This document shows, in pieces, positions 42,347 through 46,206 of a stretch of 64,000 nucleotides of DNA. The DNA is from Candidatus Levyibacteriota bacterium. GTDB taxonomy: Bacteria > Patescibacteriota > Microgenomatia > Levybacterales > UBA12049. The stretch is from NCBI GenBank assembly GCA_016182185.1, contig JACOXU010000001.1, positions 15,700 to 79,699 on the forward strand, read 5' to 3'. The first letter of the stretch is position 1; every line of letters begins with the position of its first letter. The translations under genes and the position numbers were made by a program. The notes under the pieces were generated by a model. That model had not been told where the DNA came from and did no database searches. It saw only the letters and a list, made by a program, of their open reading frames with translations.

Positions 42347-43267
42347 GTGGAAATAATTTTTATTTTACTTACGATTCTTGGCTTATCGCTCTTTGAGGTT
42401 ATAACTAGCATTGATAATGCTGTTATAAACGCGGAAGTCTTGTCTTCGATGTCTCAGAAGGCCAGAAGATGGTTTTTGCTCTGGGGATTTTTATTTGCAG
42501 TTTTTGTAATAAGAGGAATACTGCCCTTACTTTTAGTTTATGCAGCTAATCCTCAGCTTGGACTAATCGGAGCTTTTACAGCAACGCTTAATGGAGGAAA
42601 TGGGATTGCCGAAACCATAAAAGAGTCATCAAGGCCACTTCTGGTGGGCGGCGGAGTTTTCTTGATTTTTCTTTTCTTCAACTGGCTTTTTATTGAACCT
42701 AAAAACTACGGTCTTAGAGCAGAAAAGTTTTTCCACGCACAAGGCGCATGGTTTTTTTCGATAATATCAATAATACTTTCTATAATTGTCTGGTTCGCCC
42801 TTAAAGAAAACGGTCTTATGGCGTTTGGCGCGGTGGTAGGCTCAACTGCTTTTTTTATAGTCCATGGATTTCGTCAGTTTGCAGAAACTCAGGAGAAAAG
42901 GCTGGTCTCTCAAGGAATGTCTGATGTATCAAAAATTGCCTATCTTGAAGTACTGGATTCTACTTTTTCTGTTGATGGTGTTGTGGGGGCATTTGCCTTT
43001 ACTTTTTCTGTTCCCTTAATCCTTTTAGGGAACGGATTAGGAGCGCTTGTCTTGCGAAAACTGACAGTCAGCAATATTGACAGAATAAAAAAATATGCCT
43101 ACTTAAAAAATGGTGCTATGTATTCGATATTATTTTTGGGTGCAATAATGATTCTTGATAGTTTTGGATTTCATATTCCACCATGGCTCTCGCCTATCAT
43201 CACCTTCGGTACTGTGGGATATTTCTTCTATAAGTCAAGGCTTGAGTTAAAAAATAATCCCTCATAA
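42347..43267 (+). CDS. TerC/DUF475-family integral membrane protein
   Basis: EVITSIDNAVINAEVL (ExxxSxDN motif); multiple TM helices. Confidence 0.6.
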   Translation: MEIIFILLTILGLSLFEVITSIDNAVINAEVLSSMSQKARRWFLLWGFLFAVFVIRGILPLLLVYAANPQLGLIGAFTATLNGGNGIAETIKESSRPLLVGGGVFLIFLFFNWLFIEPKNYGLRAEKFFHAQGAWFFSIISIILSIIVWFALKENGLMAFGAVVGSTAFFIVHGFRQFAETQEKRLVSQGMSDVSKIAYLEVLDSTFSVDGVVGAFAFTFSVPLILLGNGLGALVLRKLTVSNIDRIKKYAYLKNGAMYSILFLGAIMILDSFGFHIPPWLSPIITFGTVGYFFYKSRLELKNNPS

Positions 43268-43315
43268 TTTTGCTTCAATTTTGATCGAGTTTTTGATACA
43301 ATATCTCTGATATTT

Positions 43316-43388
43316 GCGCCAGTAGCTCAACGGACAGAGCAACTCCCTTCTAAGGAGTAGGTTGTAGGTTCGATTCCTATCTGGCGCG
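43316..43388 (+). tRNA. tRNA-Arg (anticodon TCT)
   Basis: GCGCCAGTAGCTCAACGGACAGAGCAACTCCCTTCTAAGGAGTAGGTTGTAGGTTCGATTCCTATCTGGCGCG. Confidence 0.9.
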
Positions 43389-43473
43389 CAACGTACGAAA
43401 TCGAAGATTTCTACGTTGCTGGAACGTTTAAATTTATAATTTAATACGTTCCGCCTTCTTAAATTATTCATTA

Positions 43474-43725
43474 ATGCACTACGTTTATGTGCTAAAAAGC
43501 TTAAAAGACAATAGTTTATATATTGGATATACTACTGATCTTAAGAGAAGAGTTTTTGAACATAATAATGGTTTATCACTCTCAACTAAATATAAAAGAC
43601 CGTATAAATTAATTTTTTACGAGGGGTTTCTGGTCAGAATAGATGCGAAACATAGAGAAATTTATTTGAAAAGTGGATGGGGGTTAAGAACCTTGAAAAA
43701 ACTGCTTAAGAGGACGTTGGTATAA
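43474..43725 (+). CDS. GIY-YIG nuclease-superfamily mini-protein (YhbQ/UPF0213-like)
   Basis: YVYVLKSLKDNSLYIGYTTDLKRRVFEHNNG matches the GIY-YIG motifs. 83 aa. Confidence 0.75.
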   Translation: MHYVYVLKSLKDNSLYIGYTTDLKRRVFEHNNGLSLSTKYKRPYKLIFYEGFLVRIDAKHREIYLKSGWGLRTLKKLLKRTLV

Positions 43726-43732
43726 TAGAATT

Positions 43733-44398
43733 ATGTTTCCACTTTCAGATTCTATAAAAGCCCGAAGGCTCCCTTTTATAAATCTAATACTGATTGCAGT
43801 AAATGTATATGTATTTTTTCAACAGATTACTTCAGTATCTCAAGATATATTGATTTCTAAGTATGCATTCATCCCGTCTCTTATAAATTTTTCAGATTTT
43901 TCAACTCTTACGCCTTTTGTAACAGCAATATTTTTACATGGCGGAATATTGCACATTGTTTCCAATATGTGGTTTCTTTGGGTATTTGGAGATAATGTTG
44001 AGGGATATACGGGATGGTTTTTTTATCCTCTCATCTTTCTTTTCTCAGGAATTGTGGGTAATTTACTTCAATATTTATTTATGACTGGTTCTTCTATCCC
44101 GATGCTTGGCGCATCAGGAGCAGTAGCAGGGGTTTTGGGAGCATATTTTGTACTTTTTCCTAAGGCTCAGATAAGAACACTTATTCCAATCTTCGGTTTC
44201 CCTTCAGTTATAAATATTTCTTCCGCTTTTATGCTTGGTTATTGGTTCCTGCTTCAGATTATTTCAGGCGCTACATCAATAGGTATGTCTCAGGATGTGG
44301 GAGGAGTCGCCTTTTGGGCCCATGTGGGGGGATTTGTGACGGGACTAGTATTTGGTAAACTTTTACAAAAAAAGGTGGAATTTGAGCTTGAATCTTGA
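43733..44398 (+). CDS. rhomboid-family intramembrane serine protease
   Basis: GASGAVAGVLGAYF (GxSG catalytic Ser) and AHVGGFVTGL (catalytic His); about 6 TM helices. Confidence 0.8.
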   Translation: MFPLSDSIKARRLPFINLILIAVNVYVFFQQITSVSQDILISKYAFIPSLINFSDFSTLTPFVTAIFLHGGILHIVSNMWFLWVFGDNVEGYTGWFFYPLIFLFSGIVGNLLQYLFMTGSSIPMLGASGAVAGVLGAYFVLFPKAQIRTLIPIFGFPSVINISSAFMLGYWFLLQIISGATSIGMSQDVGGVAFWAHVGGFVTGLVFGKLLQKKVEFELES

Positions 44399-44479
44399 TA
44401 TACTATTATCTGGTGAAACGTAAAATCATTCAATGATTAACGTTTCTATCGCGTTAATTTTCCTTGCAAAATTTTACGC

Positions 44480-44552
44480 GGTGGATGTAGCTCAACAGTA
44501 GAGCGCCAGGTTGTGGACCTGGAGGTCGCGGGGGCAGCACCCGTCTTCCACC
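44480..44552 (+). tRNA. tRNA-His-like (anticodon GTG) with degenerate D/T loops
   Basis: G(-1) GTGGATG TA GCTC-AACAGTA-GAGC G CCAGG-TTGTGGA-CCTGG AGGTC GCGGG-GGCAGCA-CCCGT CTTCCAC C. Canonical His anticodon arm, G-1 and C73 are present. The D-loop lacks GG, the T-loop lacks TΨC, and acceptor pair 6:67 is U-U. Confidence 0.45.
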
Positions 44553-44633
44553 CCCGAGTCAAACTCGGTTCCCCCGAGATTGGCGAGGAGTCGCGTTTGA
44601 CGCGACTACCTTAAATTGTATTAATATAAAAAT

Positions 44634-44921
44634 ATGAATGAAACGTTAGACGTTTCAGTTCGATACTACGTTTATATTCTCTACTCTCTTAAAGATAATA
44701 AGTTTTATATTGGCTTCACGAACAACCTCAAAAAACGATTGAGTGAGCATGGTGGTGGAAATGTTGAAGCAACAAAAAATCGGTTGCCGGTAAAACTTAT
44801 TCATTACGAGTATTTTATTAATCGAGCAGATGCTGAAGCTCGAGAAAGATTTTTAAAAAGTGGTTATGGTAGAAAGCAATTTAAGGAAATTCTAAAAAAT
44901 ACCCTCAAGCCTCTGATATAA
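44634..44921 (+). CDS. GIY-YIG nuclease-superfamily mini-protein (YhbQ-like), paralog
   Basis: YYVYILYSLKDNKFYIGFTNNLKKRLSEHGGG; about 50% identical to 43474-43725. Confidence 0.75.
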   Translation: MNETLDVSVRYYVYILYSLKDNKFYIGFTNNLKKRLSEHGGGNVEATKNRLPVKLIHYEYFINRADAEARERFLKSGYGRKQFKEILKNTLKPLI

Positions 44922-44928
44922 TTGTCAT

Positions 44929-45645
44929 ATGTCGGAAGCTGAGCAATCATTGTATATAATTCGTAAAACGGATCGTAAAGAACTACTCTATGCAGAACAT
45001 GAGAAATTCAGAAAAGTTGACGCTATTGAAGTAAAACGCTCTTTTGTTATTGCTCAATATATTCGTAAACACAATGTAGGTAACAAAAGATATCTTTCAG
45101 AATTAACTCATGAGCAATTTCAAGAACGTTTAAAGCGAGCAAAATCATTTGTTTCTCATCTTTCCGAGCCAAAACTAGATGAAGTTATTGCTGAAGAATA
45201 CAAAAAAAGGCTTAAGGCATACAATGCTGTAGATTGGTATACAGGAAAAGTTCATGCAAATGAAGTTGGTGTATGGAAGGGTGCAGGTGGGCTTCCTGTA
45301 CCTTGGACACAGGGTTCATTAGTTGATACTGCGGTTCAGGTTCTGGTGGCCATGCAAGAAGATAGTGATAGTGTACTTGTTGCACGAGCAAAAAGAGCAA
45401 TTCCTCGCATCAGACGCAATATGGATATAATTGAAAAAGACCCTTACCTTTACCCAATTATTTTACCTGGTGGTACGCAGGGAAGAGGTTTGAAAGGACG
45501 TCCCTATAAAGGTTTTTTGCTTATGAAAGGTGATATTGATGATGGTTGTATGAGAGCTATAGCTTTTGTTAGTAGTGGGAGAAACAGTTTTCCTGCTTAT
45601 ATTGGAATACAAAGGCGAACAGGGAGTGAAGATTTGGTAAAATAA
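44929..45645 (+). CDS. hypothetical protein (238 aa)
   Basis: Long ORF; no recognised motif. Confidence 0.45.
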   Translation: MSEAEQSLYIIRKTDRKELLYAEHEKFRKVDAIEVKRSFVIAQYIRKHNVGNKRYLSELTHEQFQERLKRAKSFVSHLSEPKLDEVIAEEYKKRLKAYNAVDWYTGKVHANEVGVWKGAGGLPVPWTQGSLVDTAVQVLVAMQEDSDSVLVARAKRAIPRIRRNMDIIEKDPYLYPIILPGGTQGRGLKGRPYKGFLLMKGDIDDGCMRAIAFVSSGRNSFPAYIGIQRRTGSEDLVK

Positions 45646-45666
45646 ATGTAAGAATAATCAAGGAGT

Positions 45667-46206
45667 ATGAATATGTCGGCAATCCGTTTTGAAGCAAAAC
45701 TATTTAAAATCGGCTCTTGGACTATTCTCAGACTTCCTAAGAACGCAAGCACCATGCTTCCATCACGCGCCTTAACAATGATTAAGGGAACCATCAATGG
45801 TTTTGTCTTTCGAGTCGCGCTCGAACCGGATGGTCGTGGAAGTCATTGGTTTAGAGTTGATGAAGAAATGTTAAAAGAAGCTCATGTGCAAGCTGATGAC
45901 AGCGTATCTTTTGAAGTTGAGCCGACCAAAGAATGGGTAGAGCCTGATGTGCCTGAGGATTTTAAAAAAGCTCTTACAGGCAGCCCAAAAGCACATACCC
46001 TATGGATGGATATCACACCAAACGCGCGCTGGGATTGGATCCGCTGGATACGAGCTGTCAAGACTCCCCAAACACGCCAAAAGCATATTGAAGTTGCCCT
46101 CTCAAAGCTTAACAAAGGTATAAGAAGACCCTGTTGTTTTAACCGCAATCTATGCTCTGAGCCATATGTATCAAAAAACTGGGTGCTCCTTACGCCAATG
46201 CAATAG
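45667..46206 (+). CDS. DUF1905 / YdeI-OmpD-associated family protein
   Basis: N-terminal FEAKL...ILRLP...LPSR...GTINGF.F...L.PDG.G.HW (DUF1905); C-terminal DFKKAL...P.A...W...P..RWDWIRWI..VKTP.TRQKHI (YdeI-like). Confidence 0.65.
   Translation: MNMSAIRFEAKLFKIGSWTILRLPKNASTMLPSRALTMIKGTINGFVFRVALEPDGRGSHWFRVDEEMLKEAHVQADDSVSFEVEPTKEWVEPDVPEDFKKALTGSPKAHTLWMDITPNARWDWIRWIRAVKTPQTRQKHIEVALSKLNKGIRRPCCFNRNLCSEPYVSKNWVLLTPMQ

Follow-up and report, generated by a model that had tools for sequence, protein, structure and literature searches.

Why should two small genes in one short region of a bacterial chromosome each stand directly behind a tRNA gene? The question is raised by a 64-kb stretch of contig JACOXU010000001.1 from a Candidatus Levyibacteriota bacterium (36.6% G+C), referred to below, at its full length, as the window, in which two genes for putative GIY-YIG mini-nucleases follow tRNA-Arg(TCT) and tRNA-His(GTG) with spacers of 84 and 81 nt, respectively, from the end of the tRNA to the ATG, all on the + strand. 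The original prediction, made from the sequence alone, had described the genes as about 50% identical and each less than 100 nt downstream of a same-strand tRNA, and had taken duplication together with tRNA adjacency to hint at a mobile or homing-type element or at an association with tRNA processing or repair. The coordinates and the adjacency are borne out, Pfam matches both products to GIY-YIG, and the encoded proteins are 53% identical across 81 residues. The four genes concerned are as follows (the gathering score of PF01541 is 22.6 bits).

43316-43389, + strand: tRNA-Arg(TCT), partner of cassette 1 (ARAGORN; Rfam tRNA, 71.5 bits)
43474-43725, + strand: GIY-YIG mini-nuclease gene 1, 83 amino acids (aa), subfamily 1 (Pfam PF01541, E 5e-14, 52.8 bits)
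44480-44552, + strand: tRNA-His(GTG) including G-1, partner of cassette 2 (Rfam tRNA, 50 bits for 44481-44552)
44634-44921, + strand: GIY-YIG mini-nuclease gene 2, 95 aa, subfamily 2 (Pfam PF01541, E 3.5e-15, 56.5 bits)

The two genes represent two old subfamilies of a Patescibacteria-wide cassette. Its left edge is the exact 3' end of a tRNA or transfer-messenger RNA (tmRNA) gene (the discriminator, then CC), which is followed by a leader of 70-130 nt built from short hairpins, three to five in number and perfectly palindromic, with an AT-rich TATAT block before the last of these, and then by an open reading frame (ORF) of 83-105 aa that encodes a GIY-YIG catalytic domain alone, of the UPF0213/Slx1 type. 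The host gene or tRNA that comes next usually abuts the stop codon of the cassette ORF.

Stable RNA genes upstream of the cassettes

Relatives were collected by an alignment-based scan with one genome per species, which gave 80 loci (designated by L numbers), all in Patescibacteria-type genomes; adjacency was counted in the 73 loci having at least 200 nt of upstream sequence, with RNAs identified by ARAGORN and Rfam. A tRNA or tmRNA gene is directly upstream on the same strand in 64 of the 73 (88%), as compared with 14 of 308 control ORFs (4.5%), which are the other ORFs of the same loci (Fisher p 1.5e-48), and the gap between RNA gene and ORF has a median of 91 nt (interquartile range 76-107 nt). 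The adjacency is general and clearly meaningful. A gene-dense genome with 15 tRNAs in 64 kb favors some adjacency by chance, and the two cases in the window are, by themselves, only mildly improbable; it is the survey of relatives that makes the pattern overwhelming, and the difference from the controls, together with the conserved leader, rules out chance, to which we attach a negligible probability. A survey of neighborhoods had been suggested with the original prediction; the relatives are found at tRNA and tmRNA loci, differ in copy number and in presence or absence, and, among those surveyed, are not orthologues kept at conserved non-tRNA loci in constant copy number. That account contained neither the tmRNA association nor the conserved hairpin leader, which of all the features tells the most.

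The partner RNA varies among the loci, being tmRNA in 24, tRNA-Gly in 14 (three isoacceptors), tRNA-His in 13, tRNA-Lys in 6, tRNA-Ala in 4, tRNA-Glu in 2, and tRNA-Arg and tRNA-Ile in one each; metagenomic contigs add tRNA-Leu. Relatives of the 95-aa protein (subfamily 2) reach 86% identity with it, and subfamily 1, that of the 83-aa protein, has 443 relatives with identities of up to 82%, members of which sit behind tRNA-Arg(TCG), tRNA-Arg(GCG), tRNA-Ser(TGA), and tRNA-Ser(GCT). Between one and three copies occur within a few kb, and the 80 loci contain 13 additional GIY-YIG copies, 9 of which have a same-strand tRNA at most 170 nt upstream. The order tRNA-Arg-GIY-tRNA-Lys-GIY at L011 (2415-3297) resembles the window, and at L032 (2259-3288) a segment of 1.1 kb with tRNA-Phe and tRNA-Gly harbors three GIY-YIG copies. 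In L024, L032, L034, and L083, the ORF stop directly adjoins, or overlaps, the beginning of the following tRNA. At two loci, a tRNA-like sequence runs directly into the GIY-YIG start codon: at L032 (~2555-2610) it is truncated in the T-loop, and at L072 (~1500-1573) it bears an insert and ends after the D-arm. Some cassettes may interrupt tRNA genes or reside in intervening sequences.

Within the window, where tRNA density is very high and most tRNA genes lack an encoded CCA, a tblastn search found no third GIY-YIG copy, and the two cassette-linked tRNAs alone have hairpin leaders behind them. The tRNA-His is unusual. Its G-1, at 44480, faces the discriminator C, as expected for tRNA-His, but ARAGORN does not call it; the T-loop GGCAGCA replaces the universal TTC-containing loop, and the acceptor stem has a T.T mismatch. 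Because the odd T-arm recurs upstream of the GIY-YIG gene in L005, the gene seems to be conserved rather than a pseudogene. On the downstream side, a rhomboid gene begins 7 nt past the stop of gene 1, and a 238-aa ORF with no Pfam match (44929-45645) begins 7 nt past that of gene 2. At L026, a homologue of the window gene that follows (DUF1905/OmdA) is only 3 nt behind the GIY-YIG gene with no such ORF between, which suggests that the 238-aa ORF reflects an insertion or deletion exactly at the right edge of the cassette.

Both proteins are predicted, from their sequences and a structural model, to be GIY-YIG domains, putative nucleases that fold like UPF0213 and Slx1. Residues Tyr14, Tyr25, Arg35, His39, Glu59, and Glu71 are invariant in 18 sequences and Gly27 is nearly so; their catalytic roles are presumed by analogy with I-TevI and UvrC. 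The AlphaFold 2 (AF2) model of the 95-aa protein (predicted local distance difference test score, 89) has a β-β-α-β-α core with strands at 11-18, 24-29, and 53-61 and helices at 32-40 and 64-75. Foldseek ranked UPF0213 first, then the Slx1 nuclease domain, and then the UvrC N-domain and I-TevI, and the family profile matches the UPF0213 structures 1YWL and 1ZG2 with E values of about 1e-8. The label "YhbQ-like" given earlier is loose, since Escherichia coli YhbQ aligns across only the N-terminal 33 columns (probability 88%) and its gene is located between yhbP and yhbS, not beside a tRNA. No NCBIfam family model reaches its cut-off. A role as a defense system was set aside because PADLOC gave only marginal matches, with E above 0.005.

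Hairpins of the leader

The leader of cassette 2 illustrates the order of modules found across the spacers, namely H1, a variable middle hairpin, H2, an AT-rich TATAT block, and H3.

44550-44663, + strand: whole subfamily-2 leader (cmsearch 68.4 bits, E 1.5e-14; the sole match in the 64-kb window)
44554-44568, + strand: H1, CCGAG-TCAAA-CTCGG, which begins at the tRNA CCA position (discriminator C at 44552, then CC)
44569-44588, + strand: variable middle segment, a degenerate inverted copy of H1 (minimum free energy fold)
44589-44607, + strand: H2, AGTCGC-GTTTGAC-GCGACT, with a loop reverse-complementary to that of H1
44608-44633, + strand: AT-rich spacer with the TATAAT-like stretch ATTAATATAA, a presumptive promoter of the cassette
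44639-44657, + strand: H3, TGAAAC-GTTAGAC-GTTTCA, within codons 2-8 and translated as ETLDVS

A covariance model built from 13 leaders of other species matches the + strand before the gene at 74 loci, among them that of the window, where it has no further match. In the alignment of these 74 leaders, 95.9% of cells are paired, as compared with 79.7% in shuffles, and both sides of a pair have changed in 278 cells versus 86 in shuffles; none of 500 shuffles reaches either the pairing or the covariation value, and pairing falls to 30-45% when the partners are slid by one to three columns. H1 is 99.3% paired, H2 (helix 4) is 98.4% paired with changes on both sides at four of its six pairs, and the middle segment (helix 2) is 91% paired with compensatory changes; in the window leader, this segment can alternatively pair with the loop and 3' arm of H1 in the minimum free energy fold. 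Together, H1, H2, and H3 have 1355 Watson-Crick pairs as against 6 G.T and 3 A.C.

H1 directly abuts the discriminator and opens with the CC that occupies the CCA position. It typically reads CCGCG-TCAAA-CGCGG, CCGAG-TCAAA-CTCGG, or CCACG-TCAAA-CGTGG; H2 reads, for example, GTCGCG-TTTGA-CGCGAC, and H3 reads GAAAC-GTCAGAC-GTTTC. The hairpins share centers of the form GT-Y-N-R-AC (GTCAAAC in H1, GTTTGAC in H2, and GTC(A/T)GAC in H3), and the loops are specific to position, with CAA in H1 (54 of 74 leaders), TTG in H2, and CAG or CTG in H3. Over all loci, 220 such hairpins fall between -200 and +40 of a cassette start and 11 in the other ~390 kb. In the window, hairpins of the H1-H3 type are confined to cassette 2, the count being 8 matches on both strands, including one tRNA T-arm, versus a mean of 0.5 in block shuffles. 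This restriction to leaders rules out dispersed repeats, general terminators, and uptake signals as explanations of the hairpins. Rfam matched only tRNA and tmRNA, and no leader family, in a scan of 43200-45000 at E ≤ 1 and in a scan of 20 loci at gathering thresholds.

The family alignment has a conserved ATATAT(T) block between H2 and H3, but a strict σ70 scan does not call the AT-rich spacer at 44608-44633. The proposal that TTGAC in the H2 loop is a -35 box was rejected, because its distance from the TATAT block ranges between 11 and 17 nt and it is not called by the scan; a kissing interaction between the H1 and H2 loops was also rejected, as the nonconsensus loops of L006, L030, and L036 show no compensatory changes on inspection. 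The TCNGA hairpin center resembles the site of Hpy188I, a GIY-YIG restriction enzyme, and CCGCGG that of Eco29kI; it should be noted that these likenesses are a lead, not evidence. A metagenome scan with the H1 15-mer gave mostly random matches in GC-rich genomes and a few that are leader-like, five of them with a GIY-YIG match beside the hairpin (downstream on the same strand in four) and one a leader with no gene. A lone H1-H2 pair, CCGCGTCAAACGCGG-CT-GTCACGTTTGACGTGAC, is found about 100 nt past the GIY-YIG stop at L028 (3391-3476), and ARAGORN finds no tRNA before it. At L063 (2930-2975) and L073 (2905-2950), a complete hairpin is nested within the H2 loop; in L063 the loop pentamer TTTGA is doubled, on both sides of the nested hairpin, like a target-site duplication of the loop.

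H3 differs from the other hairpins in that it is often translated. It is inside the coding region in 47 of 77 ORFs, where it is read as Glu-Thr-x-Asp-Val-Ser (often ETSDVS), and in copies with a short N terminus it is placed 3-10 nt upstream of the ATG. The codons are nearly fixed, the Thr being ACG in 46 of 47 (10% elsewhere in the same ORFs), the Asp GAC in all 47 (29% elsewhere), and the Val GTT in all 47. The end residues covary perfectly, Glu with Ser (GAAAC/GTTTC) in 37 and Lys with Leu or Phe (AAAAC/GTTTT) in 10, with no mixed combination, and residues 1-6 have no ordered structure in the AF2 model. The codon bias, the covariation of end residues, and the disordered N terminus therefore mark the conserved N-terminal "peptide" as the product of a nucleic acid constraint, and ETSDVS is a clean example of protein conservation imposed in this way. 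A fixed transcription factor operator of the LexA type is unlikely, because the arms of H3 change freely and yet remain complementary.

The subfamily-1 leader is different yet related, consisting of two longer hairpins with outer stems of the form xAACGT/ACGTTx and nested AT-rich palindromes. In the window it is accompanied by an orphan hairpin of the same type upstream of the tRNA-His.

43388-43419, + strand: HA of cassette 1, an inverted repeat, GCAACGTA...TACGTTGC, with nested GAAATC-GAA-GATTTC in its loop
43421-43452, + strand: HB of cassette 1, an inverted repeat, GGAACGT...ACGTTCC, with an AT-rich palindromic interior
44415-44446, + strand: orphan hairpin, GAAACGT...ACGTTTC, of subfamily-1 leader type, with no GIY-YIG gene behind it

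The region 43389-43500 has an RNA fold z-score of -5.0. The architecture of HA recurs in the subfamily-1 relatives L081, L083, L084, and L086, and the outer stems of HB covary in L081-L086 (GAAACGT/ACGTTTC and AGAGACGT/ACGTCTC). For the pattern AACGT-N(0-30)-ACGTT, there are four matches listed in the window against 0.8 expected, and all four, contributed by leader hairpins and the orphan, are in the interval 43388-44672, which spans both cassettes. The orphan is one of two hairpins at 44415-44478, between the rhomboid stop and the tRNA-His; it may be the relic of an earlier cassette, although its membership is uncertain.

Age, relocation, and decay

The original prediction inferred duplication of the window pair and proposed a search for target-site duplications. 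Neither a recent duplication nor a target-site duplication is supported. The pair comprises two old subfamilies, each with relatives of its own at 65-86% identity, and a recent duplication is rejected by the 53% identity of the two proteins, their membership of separate conserved subfamilies, and the saturation of synonymous sites; no direct repeat of at least 9 nt, whether a target-site duplication or att-like, flanks either window copy. In comparisons of the window protein with its orthologues, amino acid identity is 64-79%, whereas identity at four-fold degenerate sites has dropped to 0.14-0.55, close to saturation. Synonymous saturation with a conserved protein argues for an old divergence under purifying selection, and not for recent transfer.

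The cassettes have nevertheless changed partners. The protein tree tracks the RNA partner in part: the window gene falls in a tRNA-His clade, tRNA-Gly copies of the three isoacceptors are mixed in another, and tmRNA copies make up several more. The nearest neighbor has the same tRNA class in 37 of 63 cases, where 13.9 would be expected and none of 5000 shuffles exceeded 28. Switches of class are also seen, three of the four tRNA-Ala copies being closest to tmRNA copies, and the 3' end of tmRNA matches that of tRNA-Ala (TCCACC). L055 (tRNA-Ala) and L065 (tmRNA), which are in a single genome, have 81% DNA identity over a stretch that begins about 25 nt within the RNA gene and ends some 45 nt short of the stop, so that the unit moved appears to be the end of the RNA gene, the leader, and most of the ORF. 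These switches, the L055/L065 pair, and the occurrence of subfamily 1 behind several tRNA-Arg and tRNA-Ser genes suggest relocation between RNA genes having similar 3' ends.

Absence from some syntenic sites and decay are evident as well. The tRNA-Arg(TCT) lies upstream of tRNA-His with no cassette in L003, L004, and L022, and between tRNA-Arg(GCG) and tRNA-Ser(CGA) there are 140 unrelated nt in L015 where L083 has a leader and gene. The ORFs of L046, L048, L053, and L080 are truncated. L103 (4278-4400) retains a complete leader (H1, middle hairpin, H2, TATATT, H3) before an ORF that has shrunk to three codons and a stop, ATG CAA CGT TAG, and more hairpins of the AACGT type follow it. A contig ends within 400 nt in 18 of the 80 loci. 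Among the matches listed, five Logan contigs from independent assemblies (L208-L212) that encode the exact GIY-2 protein begin 32-109 nt upstream of the ATG; these starts, in the tRNA-His end or leader, imply a repeat or population variant there. The mobile or homing-type hint is, accordingly, supported by the partner switches, the intragenomic duplicate, and the decayed copies, but not by recent duplication or target-site duplication.

Among the six ORFs scanned around the window copies (42347-46206) there is neither an integrase nor any other gene of a genomic island, and none occurs among the called genes with Pfam matches in the loci examined; the right flank consists of ordinary host genes that differ between lineages. 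A phage origin was rejected because viral contigs contain no relatives and PHROG gave one weak match only. At L014 (1593-1712), L063 (2816-2905), and L056 (2699-2900), an insert of 110-220 nt is located between the intact tRNA end and a repetition of that tRNA's 3' terminus, with H1 next in order; the inserts of L014 and L063 have AGGGTTTCCCGC at or near their start, and the three inserts look like another small element at the same junction.

Readings of the cassette and known systems

The reading that we prefer, tentatively and at a little less than an even chance, is that of a free-standing homing-type cassette for the 3' flanks of stable RNA genes, now partly domesticated, with hairpins that are cis sites (substrate, operator, or insulator). 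It is preferred because it covers most of the exact junction, the hairpins that resemble DNA palindromes, the catalytic core without a recognition domain, and the combination of selection with relocation and decay. Highly expressed and conserved stable RNA genes would be both landing sites and safe harbors. A small, probably structure-specific nuclease would attack palindromic hairpins, as extruded or single-stranded DNA, and/or the end of the tRNA gene, and repair of the break would copy the cassette, with the left crossover within the 3' acceptor/T-arm sequence; with the crossover there, copies could move among RNAs that share a 3' end (tmRNA to tRNA-Ala, the three tRNA-Gly, tRNA-Arg, and tRNA-Ser). 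H1 and H2 might serve as insulators between tRNA and cassette, the AT-rich block might drive the cassette's own transcription, and H3, at or just before the start codon, might hold the expression of a dangerous enzyme low or be an operator. The persistence of the cassettes by vertical descent over long times, under purifying selection, points to the domestication of many copies, those at tRNA-His and tmRNA among them, or to their upkeep by ongoing homing in recombining populations. A bolder version, which we think improbable, is a minimal mobile element in which a nuclease of ~90 aa, with neither recombinase nor DNA-binding domain, recognizes DNA structure, both in its own GT-Y-N-R-AC hairpins and in the ends of tRNA and tmRNA genes, which are prone to form hairpins, and copies a 0.4-kb cassette through acceptor-end microhomology; the nested hairpins and the TTTGA duplication of L063 would then be scars of cutting.

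It should be recognized that several observations weigh against homing. Saturation with retained protein identity looks like a long-kept selected gene and not an actively spreading parasite, and gene order is widely conserved around the copies at tRNA-His and tmRNA. Empty and occupied sites were found only between genera, with no pair within a species; no direct repeat of the kind sought crosses the borders of the window copies, and no relatives occur in viral contigs. Helices 2 and 3 have 48 G.T versus 20 A.C, which is compatible with a role at the RNA level. The ORF is a catalytic domain only, with an N-terminal extension that is a translated, disordered hairpin, whereas known homing endonucleases need a DNA-binding domain for their long recognition sites.

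A rival reading is that of a housekeeping partner of the upstream RNA, in which tRNA or tmRNA and cassette share a transcript, the hairpins are signals for RNA processing or stability, and the GIY-YIG protein acts in 3'-end maturation, repair, or quality control; a cut at H1, which overlaps the CCA position, would free the tRNA 3' end and allow the leader to refold. Strong purifying selection, long vertical retention at tRNA-His and tmRNA, the invariable opening of H1 with the CC of the CCA position, the alternative pairing of its loop and 3' arm with the middle segment, the excess of G.T over A.C in helices 2 and 3, and a "tRNA punctuation" layout, with ORF stops that abut the next tRNA in L024, L032, L034, and L083, all agree with it. 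Nevertheless, the characterized GIY-YIG enzymes are, to our knowledge, all DNases, the cassette is on only 2 of the 15 window tRNAs with a carrier that differs by lineage, pseudogenes and a gene-less leader exist, H1-H3 are nearly free of G.U (6 of 1364), which is unusual in a functional RNA helix, and the conserved TATAT block suggests a separate promoter, so that we regard a housekeeping role as unlikely. The association with tRNA processing or repair put forward earlier is a possible reading, less favored than homing. Purifying selection and the relation to UPF0213/YhbQ would also suit an ordinary, non-mobile DNA repair nuclease of the YhbQ type, tightly autoregulated through palindromic operators and settled, in these compact genomes, behind tRNAs for their transcription and termination signals, its changes of partner being due to rearrangement; palindromes with a common center that are upstream of or overlap the start are typical of autoregulated genes. 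This explanation is about as unlikely as the housekeeping one, since rearrangement alone does not account for the constant junction of discriminator and CC (64 of 73 loci, at least 10 partners) or for duplication of RNA gene end, leader, and ORF as one unit (L055/L065), a double-stranded dimer operator does not require outer arms that vary freely while remaining complementary, and E. coli yhbQ has no tRNA link.

The 3' ends of tRNA and tmRNA genes are classic sites of integration for tyrosine integrases, and this, with the repeated tRNA 3' terminus that immediately precedes H1 in L014, L056, and L063, might indicate that the GIY-YIG gene is the attL-proximal remnant of an integrase-mediated island or prophage. 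The ORFs scanned around the window copies and the loci examined contain no integrase or island gene, however, there is no attR-like repeat and no relative in viral contigs, the right flanks are lineage-specific ordinary host genes, and the unit duplicated within one genome stops inside the ORF; such an origin is very improbable.

If the homing-type reading is correct, the Patescibacteria would contain a widespread and previously undescribed class of cassettes that parasitizes or serves stable RNA genes with a core nuclease and DNA hairpins, and which would be a new minimal model for site-specific spread of a gene without a recombinase. It would also explain why genome assemblies from this group repeatedly break at tRNA and tmRNA genes, would provide in the GT-Y-N-R-AC hairpins the first testable substrate for the functionally obscure UPF0213/YhbQ-type nucleases, and add a structured leader motif that is absent from Rfam. 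Full-text literature searches did not find a description of tRNA/tmRNA adjacency or of a hairpin leader for GIY-YIG genes.

Among characterized systems, the closest in behavior are the free-standing GIY-YIG homing endonucleases of T4-like phages, above all SegB, which are intergenic, beside tRNA genes, and not intronic. Seg proteins are phage-borne, exceed 200 aa in length, and carry a DNA-binding domain at the C terminus; they differ in presence or absence between relatives, and start-proximal hairpins can limit their expression. SegB lies in the T4 tRNA gene cluster (PMC13096335). In contrast, the cassette encodes a core of ~85 aa, is chromosomal in Patescibacteria, is always at the 3' end of an RNA gene, and has a palindromic leader and a history of long-term purifying selection. 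In sequence and fold, the nearest are the uncharacterized UPF0213 proteins and Slx1. The UPF0213/YhbQ/YazA proteins (1YWL, 1ZG2) have the same size and single-domain architecture and are the best fold match; E. coli YhbQ has been called a "DNA damage response nuclease," and we know of no hairpin leader for proteins of this group. The likeness to Slx1 is one of fold only, the GIY-YIG cores superposing with template modeling scores of 0.57-0.64 (normalized to the query). Slx1 cuts branched and stem-loop DNA, has a RING/PHD domain, needs Slx4, and has no link with tRNA genes, but its substrate preference would fit palindromic hairpin substrates.

Integrase-borne islands and prophages use the same target genes and the same junction region, from the T-arm to CCA, but the cassette has a single gene in ~0.4 kb and lacks both an integrase and attL/attR repeats. 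GIY-YIG ORFs are also reported in non-intron insertions within the rRNA genes of the candidate phyla radiation (CPR) (PMC11270868); these are from the same phylum and superfamily and are linked to stable RNAs, but they are inside rRNA genes and the likeness is at the level of the superfamily, which hints at a wider habit of GIY-YIG proteins in the phylum. REP/RAYT, IS200/IS605, and integron attC systems likewise work through short palindromes that are imperfectly conserved, have covarying arms, and matter in their DNA form, and insertions nested in hairpin loops, as in such hairpin-dependent systems, are seen in L063, in L073, and at 43388-43419 of the window. Unlike these systems, however, the cassette encodes a GIY-YIG protein and neither an HUH (Y1) enzyme nor a tyrosine recombinase, and its hairpins are confined to the leader and not dispersed.

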